The notes under the pieces are model-generated. The model was not told the DNA's origin. It searched no databases and was given only the letters and a program-made list of their open reading frames with translations. The position numbers were made by a program, and so were the translations under genes. A DNA stretch of 64,000 nt, taken from sequence record PZ452584.1; one strand, 5' to 3'. Of the stretch, positions 2,565-37,610 are shown one piece after another. Source of the DNA: a phage. Each line of letters starts with the position of its first letter. Positions within the stretch are counted from its first letter, which is position 1.

Positions 2565-2751
2565 TATCTAAAATGTTGAAGTTAAAAGATACAGCCCAGT
2601 CAGTGCAGACCGTAACCTTTTTAATACAATTATCTTCAACCTCTAGCGGTTCAAACCAATATTCAATAATTTCTTTATGCCCAATATCATCTTTTACTTC
2701 GCATTCAAAATGCTGACTCATCATAACATTTTTAAATTCATCAAAAGTCAT
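2488..2751 (-). CDS. Hypothetical protein (46.x position)
   Basis: Track ORF between gene 47 and the HNH ORF; possibly one gene with 2301-2564 split at a T-run. Confidence 0.35.
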   Translation of the reverse strand: MTFDEFKNVMMSQHFECEVKDDIGHKEIIEYWFEPLEVEDNCIKKVTVCTDWAVSFNFNILDNDTPKSLRDMAVSCIKDAYCEVFDI

Positions 2752-3767
2752 TGTGTTGCCTCTACATATAACTGATTTGCATATTGAATAAGTGCTTCAC
2801 GGTCAGAATCAGTGATGTCTGGAATTGCATTAATGTATTCTTCCATCAACGTCTGAAGAGATTGAACTTCAACTTCTTCACTGTCATCTGACTCGACAGA
2901 GTTATCAATCTTTGACACAACTCGTAATGAATGCACAACTTTTTCTAGTTCAGATTCGAACTTCGTCAGATTTTTGTCTACTTCAGTTACTATAACACGT
3001 ACTGATAGATTTGTAAAATCTTTATAGTCAATTTTTCCTTTAAATGGATAATGAATTCTACGATGCCAGGTAGTATTGTTTGGAATAAATTCCATTCGTT
3101 CTGTTTCTGTATCAAACATCCAGAACCCGCGAGGGTCATTCTCGTCACCTGCAGTTAGTGTCCATGGTGTCCCAATATATCTGACGTTAGCAGCCTCAGA
3201 GATAGTATGGAAGTGACCAGACCACACCTCTTTATAAGTCTTAAGGAAATCAGGTTCAAGACCATGAGATTTCATTCCTTTATAAAAATAAAATCCATTC
3301 AGTTCCCAGTGACCAACACAAAAAGAAGCAGAAGAAGTTTTTATGTGCTCGAGAATTTCACCAGTATTTTCTTCACACATCCAAGGAATTAAATCAATTA
3401 AACATCCGTCAAAATCTACTGTAGTAGGCTTATCATATACTTTAACATTAGGATATTTAGCCAAAAGCTCAGTAGAGGCATTTGGATGCATTACATTTTT
3501 GTAGTGGAGATCGTGATTTCCTACAATAGTATGTAATGTGATTCCAGCGTCATCAAGCATTTGAACTATTTCACGGGCAAACTCCATAGTTTTATGTGTG
3601 ATTGCTTTTCGCACATCAAAAATATCACCATATTGAATCCATACAGTAATTCCATTTTTCTTAGAATATTCTATCGCTTGCTTAATTCCATCAATTTGAA
3701 TACCGCGAATCCACTCATCATCAGCTTTAACGCCTAAATGCCAATCACCCGAGTTTAGTATTTTCAT
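2748..3767 (-). CDS. 47: Recombination nuclease subunit gp47 (Mre11/SbcD-like metallophosphoesterase)
   Basis: 339 aa; N-terminus MKILNSGDWHLG and GNHD motif typical of calcineurin-like nucleases; position between agt and 46. Confidence 0.9.
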   Translation of the reverse strand: MKILNSGDWHLGVKADDEWIRGIQIDGIKQAIEYSKKNGITVWIQYGDIFDVRKAITHKTMEFAREIVQMLDDAGITLHTIVGNHDLHYKNVMHPNASTELLAKYPNVKVYDKPTTVDFDGCLIDLIPWMCEENTGEILEHIKTSSASFCVGHWELNGFYFYKGMKSHGLEPDFLKTYKEVWSGHFHTISEAANVRYIGTPWTLTAGDENDPRGFWMFDTETERMEFIPNNTTWHRRIHYPFKGKIDYKDFTNLSVRVIVTEVDKNLTKFESELEKVVHSLRVVSKIDNSVESDDSEEVEVQSLQTLMEEYINAIPDITDSDREALIQYANQLYVEATQ

Positions 3768-4377
3768 GGTGTCTTTTCCATCCTAATTTAGCTGCTTTTG
3801 AAACTAGTTCTTTAATTTTTCCTTTTGTCCATTCAGGACCAGGAGGTTCATGACATAACATTTGCTTAACTCCGTTATTATACCATTTTTTACCTTTATT
3901 ATGTGATGAAGCTTTAAATTTATTTGACCTTCCTTTTACATAACCTTCTGGAATATAAGGCAAAAAGGCAGATTTTCCTGTTAATGGATCATGTGAATGT
4001 ATATTTCCTTTACAATTATGAGAACCATATAATGGATGATTTTGTCCTTTATTATCTCTTCCAAATGAACCTTTTGGAGCAGCATATGACATATTAAAGA
4101 ATAATGGATTTTTAACTGCATCATGCAATCGTTGATAATATAACTCGCATTTAATAGCTTCTTCACGCGTATCAAATTCAGCTAAAATGCATGAATCAAA
4201 TAAGTGAGGATTATCTGAAAGCTCTTTATTATAAATTTTCTTATACTTTTTAGATAAAACTGAACCATGATATCCAGCTAAATGCCTATCTAAAGACGTA
4301 GATCCAATATAAAAAGGAGGAAGTTTATCTCCACTATATATATTGTTAAATAAGTTATATATTTTTTCATATATCAA
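3745..4377 (-). mobile_element. GIY-YIG-type (Seg-like) homing endonuclease gene; start region ambiguous
   Basis: N-terminus (L)IYEKIYNLFNNIYSGDKLPPFYIGSTS...R...E...N fits GIY-YIG order; track frame begins at TTG, the nearby ATG is in another frame across an A6 run. Confidence 0.45.
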
Positions 4378-4546
4378 GAACCGTCATTGAAATGCAAAAT
4401 AAAATTATTGAAATAAACCCATCTGGTGTGCTAAAGAACCCAATCCAACATGCTTTAGTGAATAGATAAAATGCAAGAAAAAGTATCACATATCCAAGAA
4501 ATATCATTATATCAAACTCCGTATAAAGCTAAAGGGCCGAAGCCCT

Positions 4547-5749
4547 TTATTTTGTAATAATGTCAAACTGTTCTTTAAAGCAGAAGCTTGAATCTTGATG
4601 CTGATACAAAAATTCATAAGCTTTTTCACGTTCACGGTCATAAAGAGCTCGGTCAGATGACAGTTCTTTAATACGTTCAAATGTTGATTCCATGTCATTT
4701 TCATCAAACCAAACGATACCGCTATCATGTGAAATTAACGGAGTATTATCAACACGGAATTTTAAATTTTCGCCAGTAGATTTCCAAAATACCGGAATTG
4801 TTCCACATGCACCAAGCTCGAGATGAGTATATTCTAAAGAACGTTGTAGATATTTTTTATCCAACTTACTCAACTGATAACCAAAACCGGATTTACTCAT
4901 ACGTTCAAGCATTTCGCTATTTACATAACGGTCAAGAATTTGCGTTGGTAAATTAGGAGCAATTTTAATTTGGTCTACTTGATGAAGACGATAATACTCG
5001 TATGGAATTCCTTTTTCTTTAATAGGAATGAACGCTGGAGAACGTTCCAGACCTTCCATAATAGTACTTAGTCCTGCAGGTTTAAGATGTTTTTCGTGAA
5101 AATCAAACATCTGATAAAAACCTTTCCATGTAGTCGTACGACCAATCCAACGGTTGATATTCATGTTAATTTCAGAAACATCTTTCCAGTAGGTTGATCG
5201 AACCTTCGCAATATCCATAGGAGGCTGAAAGTTGTATACGGTCGGTGCTTCTTCAATGTCATCAAACAGAGAAACTGTTTCAGGATACCATTCTTTCATC
5301 AGAACTTTATTAAAATCGCCATTATCAGAATGACTAAAAATAACATCAGCTCGACGAACAGTTTCTTCTAATCCCAAATTTCGACGCAAAGAAAGAGAAG
5401 AATGGTCATGCTGATAAACTACAACACGAACCGAAGGTTTAATGTTATCAATAATTTTTTTATAGTTATTAATAGTGTCTTCTTCAACTGAAGTAGCAGG
5501 AACTGAATTGATAATTAGAATATCACAATCATTTACCAGCTTAAGTGTTTTATCGTATTCTTTTGCCAATAAAACCGGAATTGAAAATGATTTATAATCA
5601 TGTGCACAGTTACGAGTAAATGATTTATCTTTAGCATAAACCAAAGTTACTTCATGACCATTTTTAATAAACCAATCACGTTGCTCAAGAGAAAATTTAG
5701 TTACACCACAACCTTCAAGACCTCGAGCCATAAAAATACATACTTTCAT
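4547..5749 (-). CDS. agt: DNA alpha-glucosyltransferase
   Basis: 400 aa, MKVCIFMARGLEGCGVTKFSLEQRDWFIKNGHEVTLVYAKDK... recognised as T4 Agt with scattered substitutions. Confidence 0.9.
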   Translation of the reverse strand: MKVCIFMARGLEGCGVTKFSLEQRDWFIKNGHEVTLVYAKDKSFTRNCAHDYKSFSIPVLLAKEYDKTLKLVNDCDILIINSVPATSVEEDTINNYKKIIDNIKPSVRVVVYQHDHSSLSLRRNLGLEETVRRADVIFSHSDNGDFNKVLMKEWYPETVSLFDDIEEAPTVYNFQPPMDIAKVRSTYWKDVSEINMNINRWIGRTTTWKGFYQMFDFHEKHLKPAGLSTIMEGLERSPAFIPIKEKGIPYEYYRLHQVDQIKIAPNLPTQILDRYVNSEMLERMSKSGFGYQLSKLDKKYLQRSLEYTHLELGACGTIPVFWKSTGENLKFRVDNTPLISHDSGIVWFDENDMESTFERIKELSSDRALYDREREKAYEFLYQHQDSSFCFKEQFDIITK

Positions 5750-5815: not shown

Positions 5816-6007
5816 CTATCCGCATAATACACCATACAAAGGCTCATTAGAGCTTCTAAATTTTATGCGCTTATATGTTATAGTTCCTTCTGCTTTAGCT
5901 TTATCATGAGACTCTTTAAAGCGTCTCATCATTTCCTCTTTAGAGGAACGAATTTTATTATAATCTATTTCAGAAGTCTGGTGTTCATCTTTCACAGTTG
6001 CCACCAT
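5816..6007 (-). CDS. Hypothetical small protein
   Basis: Track ORF, same strand and compact spacing as flanking early genes. Confidence 0.3.
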   Translation of the reverse strand: MVATVKDEHQTSEIDYNKIRSSKEEMMRRFKESHDKAKAEGTITYKRIKFRSSNEPLYGVLCG

Positions 6008-9526: not shown

Positions 9527-9997
9527 TTAATCATGTTTCCACACCCCATCGGTATTTGACCAAAGTCGCTGATTATCTGATCCTCGCCACAGCTTTTTGG
9601 TCGGAAGATTTTTCTCATACTTCCCATCAATAATAACATCAACATATTTAAGCATTTCTAGTTGTTTAATATCTTCAAACTTATATCCTGTCCACAACCA
9701 AATGCTTTTATTGGGATAAAGATTTTTTACTGTTTGAACAATGCAATGAATAACATCTCGATTGTCAGGATAAAGAGGGTCACCTCCGGTTATAGTTAAT
9801 CCTTCTATATAATCATTATTCAAACATTCAATTAATTGTTCTAGTGTTTCACCAGTGAATGGAATACCATTTCTAGCATTCCATGTTGATTTATTATAAC
9901 ACCCTTCGCATTTATGCAAACAACCTGTAACGAAAAGAACTGTCCTGCATCCAGGACCATTAACAAAGCAGCACGGGTATATTCTGTCATAATTCAT
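9527..9997 (-). CDS. nrdG: Anaerobic ribonucleotide reductase activating protein (radical SAM)
   Basis: MNYDRIYPCCFVNGPGCRTVLFVTGCLHKCEGCYN: CxxxCxxC cluster, 156 aa. Confidence 0.9.
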   Translation of the reverse strand: MNYDRIYPCCFVNGPGCRTVLFVTGCLHKCEGCYNKSTWNARNGIPFTGETLEQLIECLNNDYIEGLTITGGDPLYPDNRDVIHCIVQTVKNLYPNKSIWLWTGYKFEDIKQLEMLKYVDVIIDGKYEKNLPTKKLWRGSDNQRLWSNTDGVWKHD

Positions 9998-10826
9998 TTA
10001 TATATTTCCAATTATAGCCTTCAACACTTTTACGTTCGCCATTTAAACATTTTAAAATATTTCCTTTGCTAGAAATATTAAAATATTTTGCTGCGTCTGG
10101 TATATAATTAAATGTTTTTAAAAGAACACCATCTTTATATGCGCCAAATAAATTAAGAGTATATTTTTCTCGAAGACGCTGATGTTTCCTTTTCATAACC
10201 TCAGGATTTGCATACGCCAACTTCAATGAATTTCTGTGTTTTTCTTTTACTTCAGGTTTTTGCATTGCTAACTTAGTTAGCCTGGAAATTTTATTTCTAA
10301 CTTCGTCAGTTTTCATTGCATTTGACAAATTTAATAAAGTTTTATTTCTAACTTCAGGTTTTTGCATTGCTAACTTAGTTAGTTCTCTATGTCTTTTTCT
10401 AAAATCGTCATCCTTCCATATATTTTTCGATAATTTTGACATAGAGCGGTGAAATAATTCCTTTTCACTGGAATACAATTTAAAAATTTCATCCAATTCA
10501 TCCGCATTAAATCTATCGGTATTCGAGTTTATCATTCTATGAAAGGCATAACACATTTTACTATTGCTTGTTTTAGCTAAATAGTAATGAGCTAACGCAT
10601 GGTCATAATATGACAAATTAACAATATTCCATTTATCTGTTTTATATTCAGGAAATATAGATTTGGGAAGCACGTGATGTGCTTCCGTTTTTCCTTTTAT
10701 TTTAGGATTATTATAATTTTTTGTTATCAAATCAACATATGACAATAGTAAATCATTATTTTCTTCAAATATTAAAGCTAATTTATCATTCACAAAATCG
10801 CAAGGATAAAATCTATCATAATTCAT
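9987..10826 (-). mobile_element. Free-standing HNH homing endonuclease gene (Mob-like), copy 2, inserted between nrdD and nrdG
   Basis: 279 aa; GKTEAHHVLPKSIFPEY motif shared with ORF 1450-2304; first 13 codons (MNYDRFYPCDFVN) duplicate the nrdG N-terminus; perfect 32-bp tandem repeat inside. Confidence 0.65.
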
Positions 10827-22071: not shown

Positions 22072-23085
22072 TCATTTATAATAACTTCGGTGGTTTTCAA
22101 GATACACCTTCTCAAGGAAGTCATCCCAGAAACCCATGTCTACTTTTTGCTGCATACCGTTCTTAGAAGCTTCAGTAGATGCTGCTTCTACTTGATCGAC
22201 CACATCTTCCAAAAACTCTTGAACTGTTTTAAATGGATGCTTACCCAACTTCACGTCGAGAATAAATGGAGCATCTTGGAGTGGATAAACCAAGTCACCA
22301 GTTTTGTAAATTTCCAATAGTTGGAGTCCACCACGACAAGCATGACTCAGAGCTTTCCAGTCAATACCTTCATTGGCTTCGGCCTTACGAGCACGTTCAC
22401 CGTATTCAGCATCAAGTTTATTCAAAGACTGCTTAAGCTCAATAAGAGAAAGCGTTGTCTGATATTTACGACCCAACACAGTGTAGAACGTTTGTGGGCC
22501 TGTTTTCTCATGATTATGGAACACCCATTCACAGAATTCGTTTTCTGGAAGACGATGCTTAATATCTTCAACTTTAGTACGACGCTGCTTAATGGAACCG
22601 TCTTCTTGGTAATCAACCCATTGCTCAGGGATTTGATTAACTACTTTCAATACATCGCGTAATGCAGCCAAACGAGAACCCTTGACACCGTATTTAGAAG
22701 CTTGCTTGCGAACATATCCTAAATAAGATTTCATGTTAGTCGTATAAAAACGAGAACGGTTGTCTTGAATAAACTTCCACACATCAGGCAAATCAGATTT
22801 AACCACTAATTCAGGTGGAGTGTGAAGCATATCCAATGCTACAGTTTCACCATCTGCTGCTAATTTAAAGAAATACTTAAGACTATACAATTCGTGGTCA
22901 ATATCATCTTTAGTGTTTTTAGATGATGTGTTGTTGGTGTTTTTACTCATGTGCTCTTTGACATTTCCGATAAGAATATCGCGAGCAGGAGGAACAAAAA
23001 TTTCTTTAAAATCTACATCAGATTCTGGGGTAGAAGTTCCATAAAGATGACTACCAAAATAGCTTTTCATTACTGTTTTCATCAT
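22072..23085 (-). CDS. Pol-beta-superfamily nucleotidyltransferase-like protein
   Basis: N-terminal YFGSHLYGTSTPESDVDFKEIF matches GS-x(9-13)-DxD nucleotidyltransferase signature; 337 aa. Confidence 0.5.
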   Translation of the reverse strand: MMKTVMKSYFGSHLYGTSTPESDVDFKEIFVPPARDILIGNVKEHMSKNTNNTSSKNTKDDIDHELYSLKYFFKLAADGETVALDMLHTPPELVVKSDLPDVWKFIQDNRSRFYTTNMKSYLGYVRKQASKYGVKGSRLAALRDVLKVVNQIPEQWVDYQEDGSIKQRRTKVEDIKHRLPENEFCEWVFHNHEKTGPQTFYTVLGRKYQTTLSLIELKQSLNKLDAEYGERARKAEANEGIDWKALSHACRGGLQLLEIYKTGDLVYPLQDAPFILDVKLGKHPFKTVQEFLEDVVDQVEAASTEASKNGMQQKVDMGFWDDFLEKVYLENHRSYYK

Positions 23086-23203
23086 TCAGCCTTATATTCA
23101 ATAACAGGACATACTTTAGCTTTACGGGCTTTTAAAAATTCGACGATAATAGATTTCTTGGGTTGAATAGGAGGTAAACCTTTATACGCCCTATCAATAT
23201 TTT

Positions 23204-23542
23204 CTACATGTAAAGCATAATCCTTTTCCATTTATAATCTTTATATTTTTCATGCAGTTGTGCAGGAATAACAAATGAACCGATAATAAGTAAAACAAGC
23301 AAAATGGCAAGTATAAATGCTGATGGAATAAGAGTCCATAAACTACCAAAAATAAGCCATTTCTGTATGATTTCTGCACAGATGATAGTTAGCCCTACGA
23401 GTATAGCACATCCGAAAAAAGAAACGAAAAATGTAGGAATAACAATAGACCAAAAATATGCACATAGTGTCTTAGGTCGTTGCCATTCATCGTTAAACAA
23501 TTTGAATAATTTATAGTGCCAAGAGTTTTCATTAATAATCAT
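23204..23542 (-). CDS. Hypothetical membrane protein
   Basis: 112 aa, several hydrophobic helices. Confidence 0.4.
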   Translation of the reverse strand: MIINENSWHYKLFKLFNDEWQRPKTLCAYFWSIVIPTFFVSFFGCAILVGLTIICAEIIQKWLIFGSLWTLIPSAFILAILLVLLIIGSFVIPAQLHEKYKDYKWKRIMLYM

Positions 23543-23544
23543 AA

Positions 23545-24066
23545 TTATCCTTTCATTGAAGGCGTAACGGTTGTTAAATATTTAATCATAGCTTCAGCTT
23601 CTGATTTTGATAATGAAATTTCTCCATTGTTTTGACGAATAGAAATAAAATCCGGATGACGGTCACCACCAGCTTTTAAAACACACATATAAGTATCAAC
23701 TTCGCCTTCAATATTTGAAATGATTGAAGCAGTTCCACATGAATGCGGTTTTTGATAAATCAACACAGCTTTTCTTCCGCCATTTGACTGCTCATAGGCT
23801 TTTAATACATCAAGCAAATCAGTTCTTTTATCAATAGCTAAAATGTTATTTTCATCTTCAATGTTAAATCCTTCGGATACTTCATAAAGCGTTACCCATA
23901 AATCACCAATGTCAATAACAGCATTTACTTTTCCACGGCTTTCAAGAGTATGACAAATTTTCTTGATTTCGTCATAACTCATTTTAATAATATCATCTCC
24001 TTGACTAAGAAAGATGTCATTTTTAAATTCAACACGAATTAAACCGCTTCCACTTGAAATAAACAT
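23545..24066 (-). CDS. Hypothetical protein (paralog-like with 24073-24627)
   Basis: C-terminus ...SEAEAMIKYLTTVTPSMKG resembles neighbour's ...DEAIALKTYLDSVIPTMISK. Confidence 0.45.
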   Translation of the reverse strand: MFISSGSGLIRVEFKNDIFLSQGDDIIKMSYDEIKKICHTLESRGKVNAVIDIGDLWVTLYEVSEGFNIEDENNILAIDKRTDLLDVLKAYEQSNGGRKAVLIYQKPHSCGTASIISNIEGEVDTYMCVLKAGGDRHPDFISIRQNNGEISLSKSEAEAMIKYLTTVTPSMKG

Positions 24067-30622: not shown

Positions 30623-30983
30623 TACAAACTTTCAGTAAAGGTACGAGCGATAACGTCGCGCTGCTGTTCCGGAGTCAGAGAGTTAAAGCGAACTGCATAA
30701 CCGGATACACGGATGGTCAGCTGCGGATATTTTTCCGGATGCTTAACTGCATCTTCCAGAGTTTCACGACGCAGAACGTTAACGTTCAGGTGTTGACCAC
30801 CTTCAATTTTAACTGTAGGCTGTGGCTCAATTTCAATTTCACGGGCATGCAAACCATAGAAAATTTCCGGGTCTACAAAAGAGTCCTCTTTAAAGGTTTA
30901 GAAACGATAATTCGTGCTTGAATACCATCTTCAAAATAAATAGTACCTTTATGTGTGCCTTCAAGAATTTGATATGCTTTCAT
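30622..30983 (-). pseudogene. GrcA/YfiD-like autonomous glycyl-radical cofactor gene, reading frame broken once
   Basis: C-terminal frame encodes ...[63 protein letters not shown]; a different frame from ATG at 30981-30983 encodes [30 protein letters not shown] then stops; one extra base at gtttctaaaccttta would join them. Confidence 0.5.
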
Positions 30984-37475: not shown

Positions 37476-37610
37476 GTTTTGTGAAAAAAAAAAATTTTTA
37501 AAGGTTTTGGGGAATTCTAGGGCAGGGAGGGGAAATCAAAGGATAGGATAATATATTATAAAGGATAGAAACTAAATGATGCCTAGAGAGGCCTGGAAAG
37601 GCCTAGATAC

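Follow-up and report, generated by a model that had tools for sequence, protein, structure and literature searches.

The closest described systems are the free-standing Seg endonucleases of phage T4, for which intronless homing and marker exclusion have been characterised (PMC2988022). For mobE, low expression through translational coupling has been proposed (PMC2988022). The prototype of the GIY-YIG enzymes, I-TevI, is intron-encoded and contains a zinc finger and a helix-turn-helix. Genes of this kind are also encountered in degenerate form: mobA and I-TevIII are defective in the T4 annotation, phage isolates often carry frameshifted copies of homing endonuclease genes (PMC10448857), and the endonuclease genes of ICP1 are frequently frameshifted among its isolates (PMC10448857).

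The stretch of DNA analysed here (64,000 nt in total; hereafter the window) belongs to a T4-like phage of the genus Tequatrovirus, to which T2 and its relatives are closest (~96% identity over 25 kb). On its minus strand, a-gt (4547–5749) is followed by gene 47.1, an endonuclease ORF and gene 47. The endonuclease resembles T4 SegE and SegG in its size of ~205–210 aa and in its profile matches, which extend over the full length for SegE and include SegG. Like them, it is free-standing between conserved genes, has the orientation of its neighbours and is absent from some close relatives; a GYxGS motif that follows YIGS in the family resembles the "DGYMGSG" of the Seg proteins. It differs from SegE and SegG in sharing only ~27–28% identity with them and in that the window copy is frameshifted. 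Its site also differs, as PMC2988022 does not list the 47.1/47 junction for any of the T4 seg genes.

Likeness to the I-TevI catalytic domain (PDB 1LN0 and 1MK0) is structural (probability 0.99; target-normalised TM-score 0.59–0.60) and comprises the strand-strand-helix order along with Glu75 and Asn92, both invariant in the family alignment. In contrast, sequence identity is 17–19% and the Foldseek E-value only 0.03–0.05, and the window protein is free-standing with a different C-terminal region. The orthologs in phages teqhad (YP_010074265.1) and PaulHMueller (Bas45; QXV83538.1) are 99.4–99.6% identical to the window in DNA over 901 bases and occupy the identical position with the same ATGA start overlap, but they have an (AT)3 run and an open frame of 207 aa, where the window has (AT)4 and a broken frame. 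As with mobA and I-TevIII, a selfish endonuclease gene is broken by a small indel while its neighbours are intact. Unlike the degenerate T4 and ICP1 genes, the lesion in the window is single, very recent and without further decay, and it could be an assembly error.

The endonuclease family is already catalogued but uncharacterised, and the window copy is an ordinary broken or mis-assembled member of it. In our preferred reading, to which we assign a probability of about 0.55, a Seg-type homing endonuclease gene gained one AT unit by slippage and became a null allele. What keeps the figure from being higher is that the presence of the extra AT in the phage itself, and not just in its assembly, is inferred.

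Gene order and reading frames at the locus

Gene 47.1 (4367–4507, minus strand), so named in T2 and T4, encodes a 46-aa predicted membrane protein (phrog_6693, E = 7.6e-31). Its TGA stop (4369–4367) overlaps the native ATG of the endonuclease gene (4368–4370, minus strand) as ATGA. Intact relatives have their annotated CDS start at this very ATG: for teqhad, PaulHMueller and Killian, the CDS begins at position 531 of the locus, and the ORF upstream of it ends at 534. Around the endonuclease start, the minus strand of the window reads ...ACGGTTCTTGATATATGAAAAAATATATAACTTATTTAACAATATATATAGTGGAGAT....

From the ATG, codons 1–11 (4338–4370, minus strand) encode MKKYITYLTIY, assigned by translation and family consensus to strand β1 with the "GIY" half of the motif. 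Codons 2 and 3 (Lys-Lys) coincide with an A6 run (4362–4367, minus strand), which has the wild-type length and is not the lesion. The ATG frame extends over 26 codons, MKKYITYLTIYIVEINFLLFILDLRL, and is closed in the window translation by a TAG at 4292–4290 (minus strand). The body of the endonuclease, from Ser12 to the stop (3745–4335, minus strand), is intact and lies in the –1 frame relative to its own ATG, which puts the ATG in the +1 frame relative to the body. It is predicted to encode the remainder of the GIY-YIG domain, which reaches ~residue 95, followed by a linker and, at the C-terminus, a DNA-binding region. The sole ORF that contains it covers 3745–4377 (210 aa) and opens at a TTG (4375–4377, minus strand), a by-product of the frameshift whose use as a start is not conserved. 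Downstream, the 3' end of the endonuclease gene and the first 23 nt of gene 47 overlap; the latter (2748–3767, minus strand) encodes an SbcD-like recombination nuclease subunit, as identified from its ORF and from annotations.

An initial annotation made from the window had described a body frame that opens at the TTG and an ATG that is out of frame with it. Our analysis reproduced this arrangement, with the TTG at 4377–4375, the ATG at 4370–4368 and the A run at 4367–4362. This is a statement about frames and not a statistical pattern, to which a test against chance is not applicable.

An extra AT unit breaks the reading frame

A 901-base query was searched against 50,697 phage records, of which 507 matched and 66 covered at least 80% of the query; in nearly all of these 66, the matching span is two bases shorter than in the window. 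A second query of 101 bases, centred on the site, matched 69 phage records over its full length. The 60 of these that were listed each span 99 bases, and identity does not exceed 98.0% in any of the 69. The extra AT unit is hence present in 0 of the 69 phage records that cover the site. Alignment with intact relatives places the difference 19 nt downstream of the A6 run, where the window reads AACAATATATATAGTGG and the relatives AACAATATATAGTGG. The (AT)4 run of the window (4336–4343, minus strand) is 2 bp longer than the (AT)3 of the relatives and shifts the frame after codon 11. When one AT is deleted from the window, the resulting 207-aa protein is 100% identical to that of teqhad, which represents a 55-member cluster. 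On these alignments, the lesion is almost certainly one extra AT unit that converts (AT)3 into (AT)4 at 4343–4336.

The A6 run is present in seven of the eight relatives that were fetched, including the three with an intact annotated CDS (teqhad, PaulHMueller and Killian), which also share the ATG; the exception is ERS-1, a noisy record labelled UNVERIFIED. The initial annotation had taken this run to be one A short, and one added A does restore the frame arithmetically, but the intact relatives contradict that proposal. The comparison with homologs that it had recommended confirmed the frameshift while moving its cause from the A run to the AT run. The homopolymer nearest to a frameshift is hence not necessarily its site, and only the comparison of orthologs located this lesion.

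Larger collections were consulted for both alleles. An exact look-up in a set of 15 billion proteins returned neither the 210-aa TTG product nor the 26-aa peptide, and thus no second, independent assembly of this phage. Metagenome contigs contained the normal allele only, in two contigs, and not the (AT)4 allele. Neither allele was present in a genome contig collection, and an exact-pattern scan of IMG/VR also yielded neither (AT)4 nor the normal allele and was therefore uninformative.

Family assignment and predicted fold

Sequence profiles and structure prediction identify the gene as a free-standing Seg-type GIY-YIG homing endonuclease, and the GIY-YIG assignment of the initial annotation is borne out by the Pfam matches, the fold search and the Seg profile matches. 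The intact 207-aa product is predicted to consist of an N-terminal GIY-YIG domain and a C-terminal DNA-binding region. Against Pfam PF01541, the intact ortholog scored 21.4 bits (E = 3.1e-4; residues 4–84 on profile positions 2–74) and the TTG product of the window 20.1 bits, the cut-off being 22.6. An alignment of 29 sequences was assembled from 27 homologs, the intact ortholog and the TTG product of the window; 12 of the 29 match PF01541 at E ≤ 0.01 (best, 2.4e-5), and one homolog (P0064) has a precomputed PF01541 hit.

The AF2 model has pLDDT values above 90 over residues 1–95, with strands at 4–11, 19–25 and 57–65 and helices at 26–30, 43–52 and 68–81. A Foldseek search of the PDB with this model returned chains of the I-TevI catalytic domain as the top three matches (probability 0.90–0.99; 0.99 for the best two), followed by Slx1, and the predicted domain accordingly has the α/β fold of GIY-YIG enzymes. 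Across the 29 aligned sequences, E75 and N92 do not vary at all, and Y7, Y11, Y20-I21-G22 and R68 hardly do. As judged from the sequence alignment only, no Arg is clearly conserved directly after YIG, unlike Arg27 of I-TevI.

Homology to characterised Seg enzymes was found with hmmsearch of the family profile against T4 proteins, which matched SegE at 3.5e-15 (profile positions 8–196 on SegE 2–199), SegG at 1.7e-8, SegC at 1.1e-6 and SegB at 1.6e-5. A C-terminal segment, NKGKKWYNNG...PxGW.KG, is conserved in the family alignment. The Pfam NUMOD3 motif is present in 11 of the 29 aligned sequences (best, 4.1e-46) and was not detected in the protein encoded at this locus. Neither the protein nor the family profile found a meaningful match among PDB sequences, and NCBIfam yielded none; the family was settled only by the fold search together with the Pfam and Seg profile comparisons.

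Orthologs are variously labelled "HNH endonuclease" (RefSeq and PHROGs), "putative homing endonuclease" and "GIY-YIG domain-containing protein". Since profile, fold and Seg homology all indicate GIY-YIG, the label "HNH endonuclease" (YP_010074265.1, phrog_10820) looks like a propagated misannotation. We recommend that the annotation of the window gene name a Seg-like homing endonuclease gene of the GIY-YIG type with a frameshift (or that the sequence be corrected, should reads show (AT)3), and neither a TTG-initiated CDS nor an "HNH endonuclease". Beyond annotation, its significance is little.

Distribution, insertion site and proposed homing

The endonuclease gene is found between 47.1 and 47 in 66–69 of the ~507 matching records (~13% of Tequatrovirus records). 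T4 and T2 are devoid of it, and there the 47.1 stop directly overlaps the ATG of gene 47. In the junction alignment, two copies of ATGAAAA flank the insert (4364–4370 and 3761–3767, minus strand), and T2 has a single copy at the 47.1/47 overlap. From the flanking repeat and the overlap in T2 and T4, it follows that the endonuclease gene took over the ATGA junction of 47.1 and 47. The gene is thus free-standing and polymorphic in presence and absence, as are the Seg genes of the T4 type. No name for, or study of, a seg gene at the 47.1/47 junction was found in the literature.

In its intact form, the gene would be translated from the ATG that overlaps the 47.1 stop to give the 207-aa product, probably by coupling to 47.1, which we propose because no Shine-Dalgarno sequence is present. 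By analogy with the proposal for mobE (PMC2988022), an ATGA overlap that is devoid of a Shine-Dalgarno sequence suggests that coupling keeps expression low. Similarly by analogy, with T4 SegE and SegG as models of homing, the endonuclease presumably cuts endonuclease-free genomes near the 47.1/47 junction, and repair would then copy the gene into them.

The first six codons of gene 47 (3750–3767, minus strand) read ATG AAA ATA CTA AAC TTG in endonuclease-bearing phages and ATG AAA ATT TTA AAT TTA in T2, which lacks the endonuclease, with four synonymous differences exactly at the insertion junction. These differences possibly represent target-site immunity or a co-conversion tract. In the window alone, codon 6 is TCG (Ser) in place of Leu, a change that is silent in the overlapping endonuclease frame.

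Origin of the extra AT unit

We favour a real mutation, at a probability of about 0.55, over an artefact as the origin of the extra AT. By this reading, replication slippage would have added one AT unit at 4343–4336, (AT)3 becoming (AT)4, and the frame would shift after codon 11. Ribosomes that start at the native ATG would then make the 26-aa peptide and no endonuclease, and this selfish, dispensable gene would carry a null allele of very recent origin. As the gene shows no other damage, the event is either very recent or not real.

The latter option, in which the AT insertion, like the one-base differences at 23224 and 30897, is a sequencing or assembly error at a short repeat and the phage itself has an intact gene for 207 aa, is a serious contender that we hold to be short of even odds. 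It would account for the presence, within 64 kb, of three singleton indels of the slippage type, each unique among 69, 420 and 485 relatives, respectively, and each embedded in sequence that is otherwise 98–99% identical to the relatives. It would also fit a gene body that is otherwise undamaged and, once repaired, 100% identical to that of teqhad, and errors of this sort visibly abound in at least one related record (ERS-1, UNVERIFIED). The type of change speaks against it, as the gain of a 2-bp unit in a short (AT)3 run is not a typical homopolymer error, and the longer homopolymers of the gene (two A6 runs and an A5) match those of the relatives.

The distribution of the breaks argues in the same direction. 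Frame-switch and ORF-integrity scans against the proteins of teqhad, T2 and T4 were used to find further breaks. The three singleton frameshifts all affect dispensable genes, and no large or essential ORF of the window is broken; genes 47, 55, nrdD, 5–15 and wac are among those that are intact. If errors fell at random, three hits in ~43 kb of dispensable sequence would lead one to expect ~1.5 in the essential genes, which amount to ~21 kb; this is our own estimate and only a weak argument. A count of indels across the whole window against teqhad and T2 (57–72 events) is confounded by ~4% divergence and provides no estimate of the error rate.

Also in keeping with a real mutation, other isolates have frameshifts of their own in this endonuclease gene. 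In ZCEC15, ESh16 and ESh36, the A run in GGT(A)nTGG, at ~1010–1020 of the locus, is A7 in place of A6, and ESh34 probably also has A7, as judged by length; the shared change may be either inherited or recurrent. KMB22 differs in having A4 for A5, and the UNVERIFIED record ERS-1 shows many homopolymer differences.

If the (AT)4 allele is real, the window phage together with teqhad or PaulHMueller (Bas45) constitutes a natural minus/plus pair. Such a pair is suited to the question whether the endonuclease causes the essential 46/47 recombination-nuclease region to be inherited preferentially when phages infect together.

Alternative readings of the frameshifted start

The repeats of the gene, namely (AT)3–4 at the 5' end and the A6 and A5 runs downstream, could in principle form an on/off contingency switch operated by slippage, and its off state may be leaky through +2 re-pairing on AUAUAUAUA or re-initiation at the TTG. 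Three repeat-length alleles that break the gene, (AT)4, A7 and A4, occur among the ~66 records. We consider a switch of this kind very unlikely.

A gene that is functional as written, with initiation at the TTG (4377), for instance by re-initiation near the 47.1 stop, would yield a 210-aa endonuclease with a different 12-residue N-terminus. Its frame runs open from 4377 down to 3745, the 47.1 stop follows the TTG by 8 nt, which puts the latter within reach of termination-reinitiation, and the product would be native from I-Y-S-G onward. This reading is nonetheless highly improbable. Inspection of the sequence upstream of the TTG revealed no Shine-Dalgarno sequence (GGAG- or GAGG-like), and the ATG that overlaps the stop would compete for the same ribosomes. 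In all relatives, the TTG frame is closed by a TAG after 13 codons; the start is not conserved, and the orthologous CDSs begin at ATG, so the signs of a genuine UUG start are missing. The long TTG ORF exists only because the AT insertion fuses two frames.

In the alignment, 27 homologs, down to ~33% identity, have in common the N-terminus xYxTYLTIYxGxKLPPFYIGSTS, in which Y7, T9, Y11, G13, P17 and Y20-I21-G22-S23 are near-invariant. The ATG frame of the window encodes the N-terminus of the family, MKKYITYLTIY, up to the AT run. The TTG frame encodes KIYNLFNN, which replaces Y7 by F and T9 by N and loses native strand β1, and its resemblance to GIY is only apparent. The tyrosines of the GIY motif are catalytically important in GIY-YIG enzymes. 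The Pfam GIY-YIG match begins at residue 4 in the intact protein and at residue 22 (profile position 15) in the TTG product. The TTG was consequently rejected as the native start on account of the early closure in relatives, the non-consensus N-terminus and the shorter Pfam match. Of the three options put forward in the initial annotation, the frameshifted gene, or an equivalent sequencing error, withstood this comparison, and initiation at the TTG did not.

Even less credence is given to programmed or tolerated recoding, in which slippage of the ribosome or the RNA polymerase on the A6 run or on AUAUAUAUA would restore the frame in some of the products and yield an attenuated endonuclease. 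With respect to the ATG, the body does lie in the –1 frame, and on AAA AAA a tRNA-Lys in the A site can re-pair at –1. Within the AT run, tRNA-Tyr (UAU) or tRNA-Ile (AUA) could re-pair 2 nt downstream and restore exactly the native T-I-Y-S-G, in a product that would begin MKKYITYLTIYSG. However, 0 of 69 relatives have the two-frame arrangement, their genes being read without a shift, and the 0-frame heptamer, G AAA AAA, departs from the canonical X XXY YYZ. A stimulatory structure is missing as well: the fold of 4270–4410 has z = 0.32, and 126 of 200 shuffled sequences fold at least as well. Furthermore, slippage on the A run would still give a non-native N-terminus, and re-pairing by +2 is very rare. 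The locus hence lacks the heptamer, the structure and the conservation of a programmed –1 ribosomal frameshift site, and programmed frameshifting was rejected for want of a stimulatory structure and of a conserved arrangement.

Least probable, and refuted by the comparison with homologs, is the model of the initial annotation in which an ancestral A7 lost one A after the ATG in the window: A7 would open the ATG frame and create a KIY that resembles the GIY motif, but all three relatives with an intact annotated CDS carry A6 and begin with MKKYITYLTIYSGDKLPPFYIGSTS, which fits the family consensus, whereas the MKKIYNLFNN described there as a typical GIY-YIG N-terminus is not the natural one and would give residues 4–12 (IYNLFNNIY) unlike the consensus YxTYLTIY, and the window differs from its relatives at the AT run and not at the A run.

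Further breaks and minor observations in the window

The initial annotation had also advised that homopolymer lengths be verified, which is reasonable for short repeats in this assembly, as two further singleton 1-nt indels break ORFs. The first affects vs.6 (30625–30983, minus strand), a GrcA-like autonomous glycyl radical cofactor of 120 aa in T2, T4 and teqhad, which is split into two frames by a 1-nt deletion at ~30897 (on the plus strand, T3 versus T4) and which the initial annotation had already mentioned as a GrcA-like break. Among 485 matching records, the best hits all have the base and are otherwise identical. The second is in the small accessory ORF that adjoins nrdC.11 (23085–23545, minus strand; 153 aa in teqhad), where a 1-nt deletion at ~23224 gives T4 versus T5; of 420 records, the best hits differ from the window in that base alone.

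An HNH-type endonuclease ORF of 279 aa (9987–10826, minus strand) is located between nrdD and nrdG (9527–9997). Its opening codons nearly repeat codons 1–13 of nrdG (MNYDRFYPCDFVN versus MNYDRIYPCCFVN), a borrowed start of the downstream gene that is laid out as is the ATGAAAA repeat flanking the Seg-like gene. It has the motif EAHHVLPKSIFPE in common with the ORF at 1450–2304.

At ~37490, in the e.7/e.8 region, the window has A11 where teqhad and T2 have A6; these five extra bases are apparently intergenic, and a 1-nt difference lies close to the run at 37504. Finally, at the a-gt.2/a-gt.3 junction, a window-specific 1-nt deletion outside any homopolymer is found at 5982 (minus strand), near the start of a-gt.2, with TCTGG-TGTTC in the window and TCTGGATGTTC in teqhad and T2. 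The a-gt.2 ORF of the window begins at a different upstream ATG and encodes 63 aa, versus 57 aa in T2.
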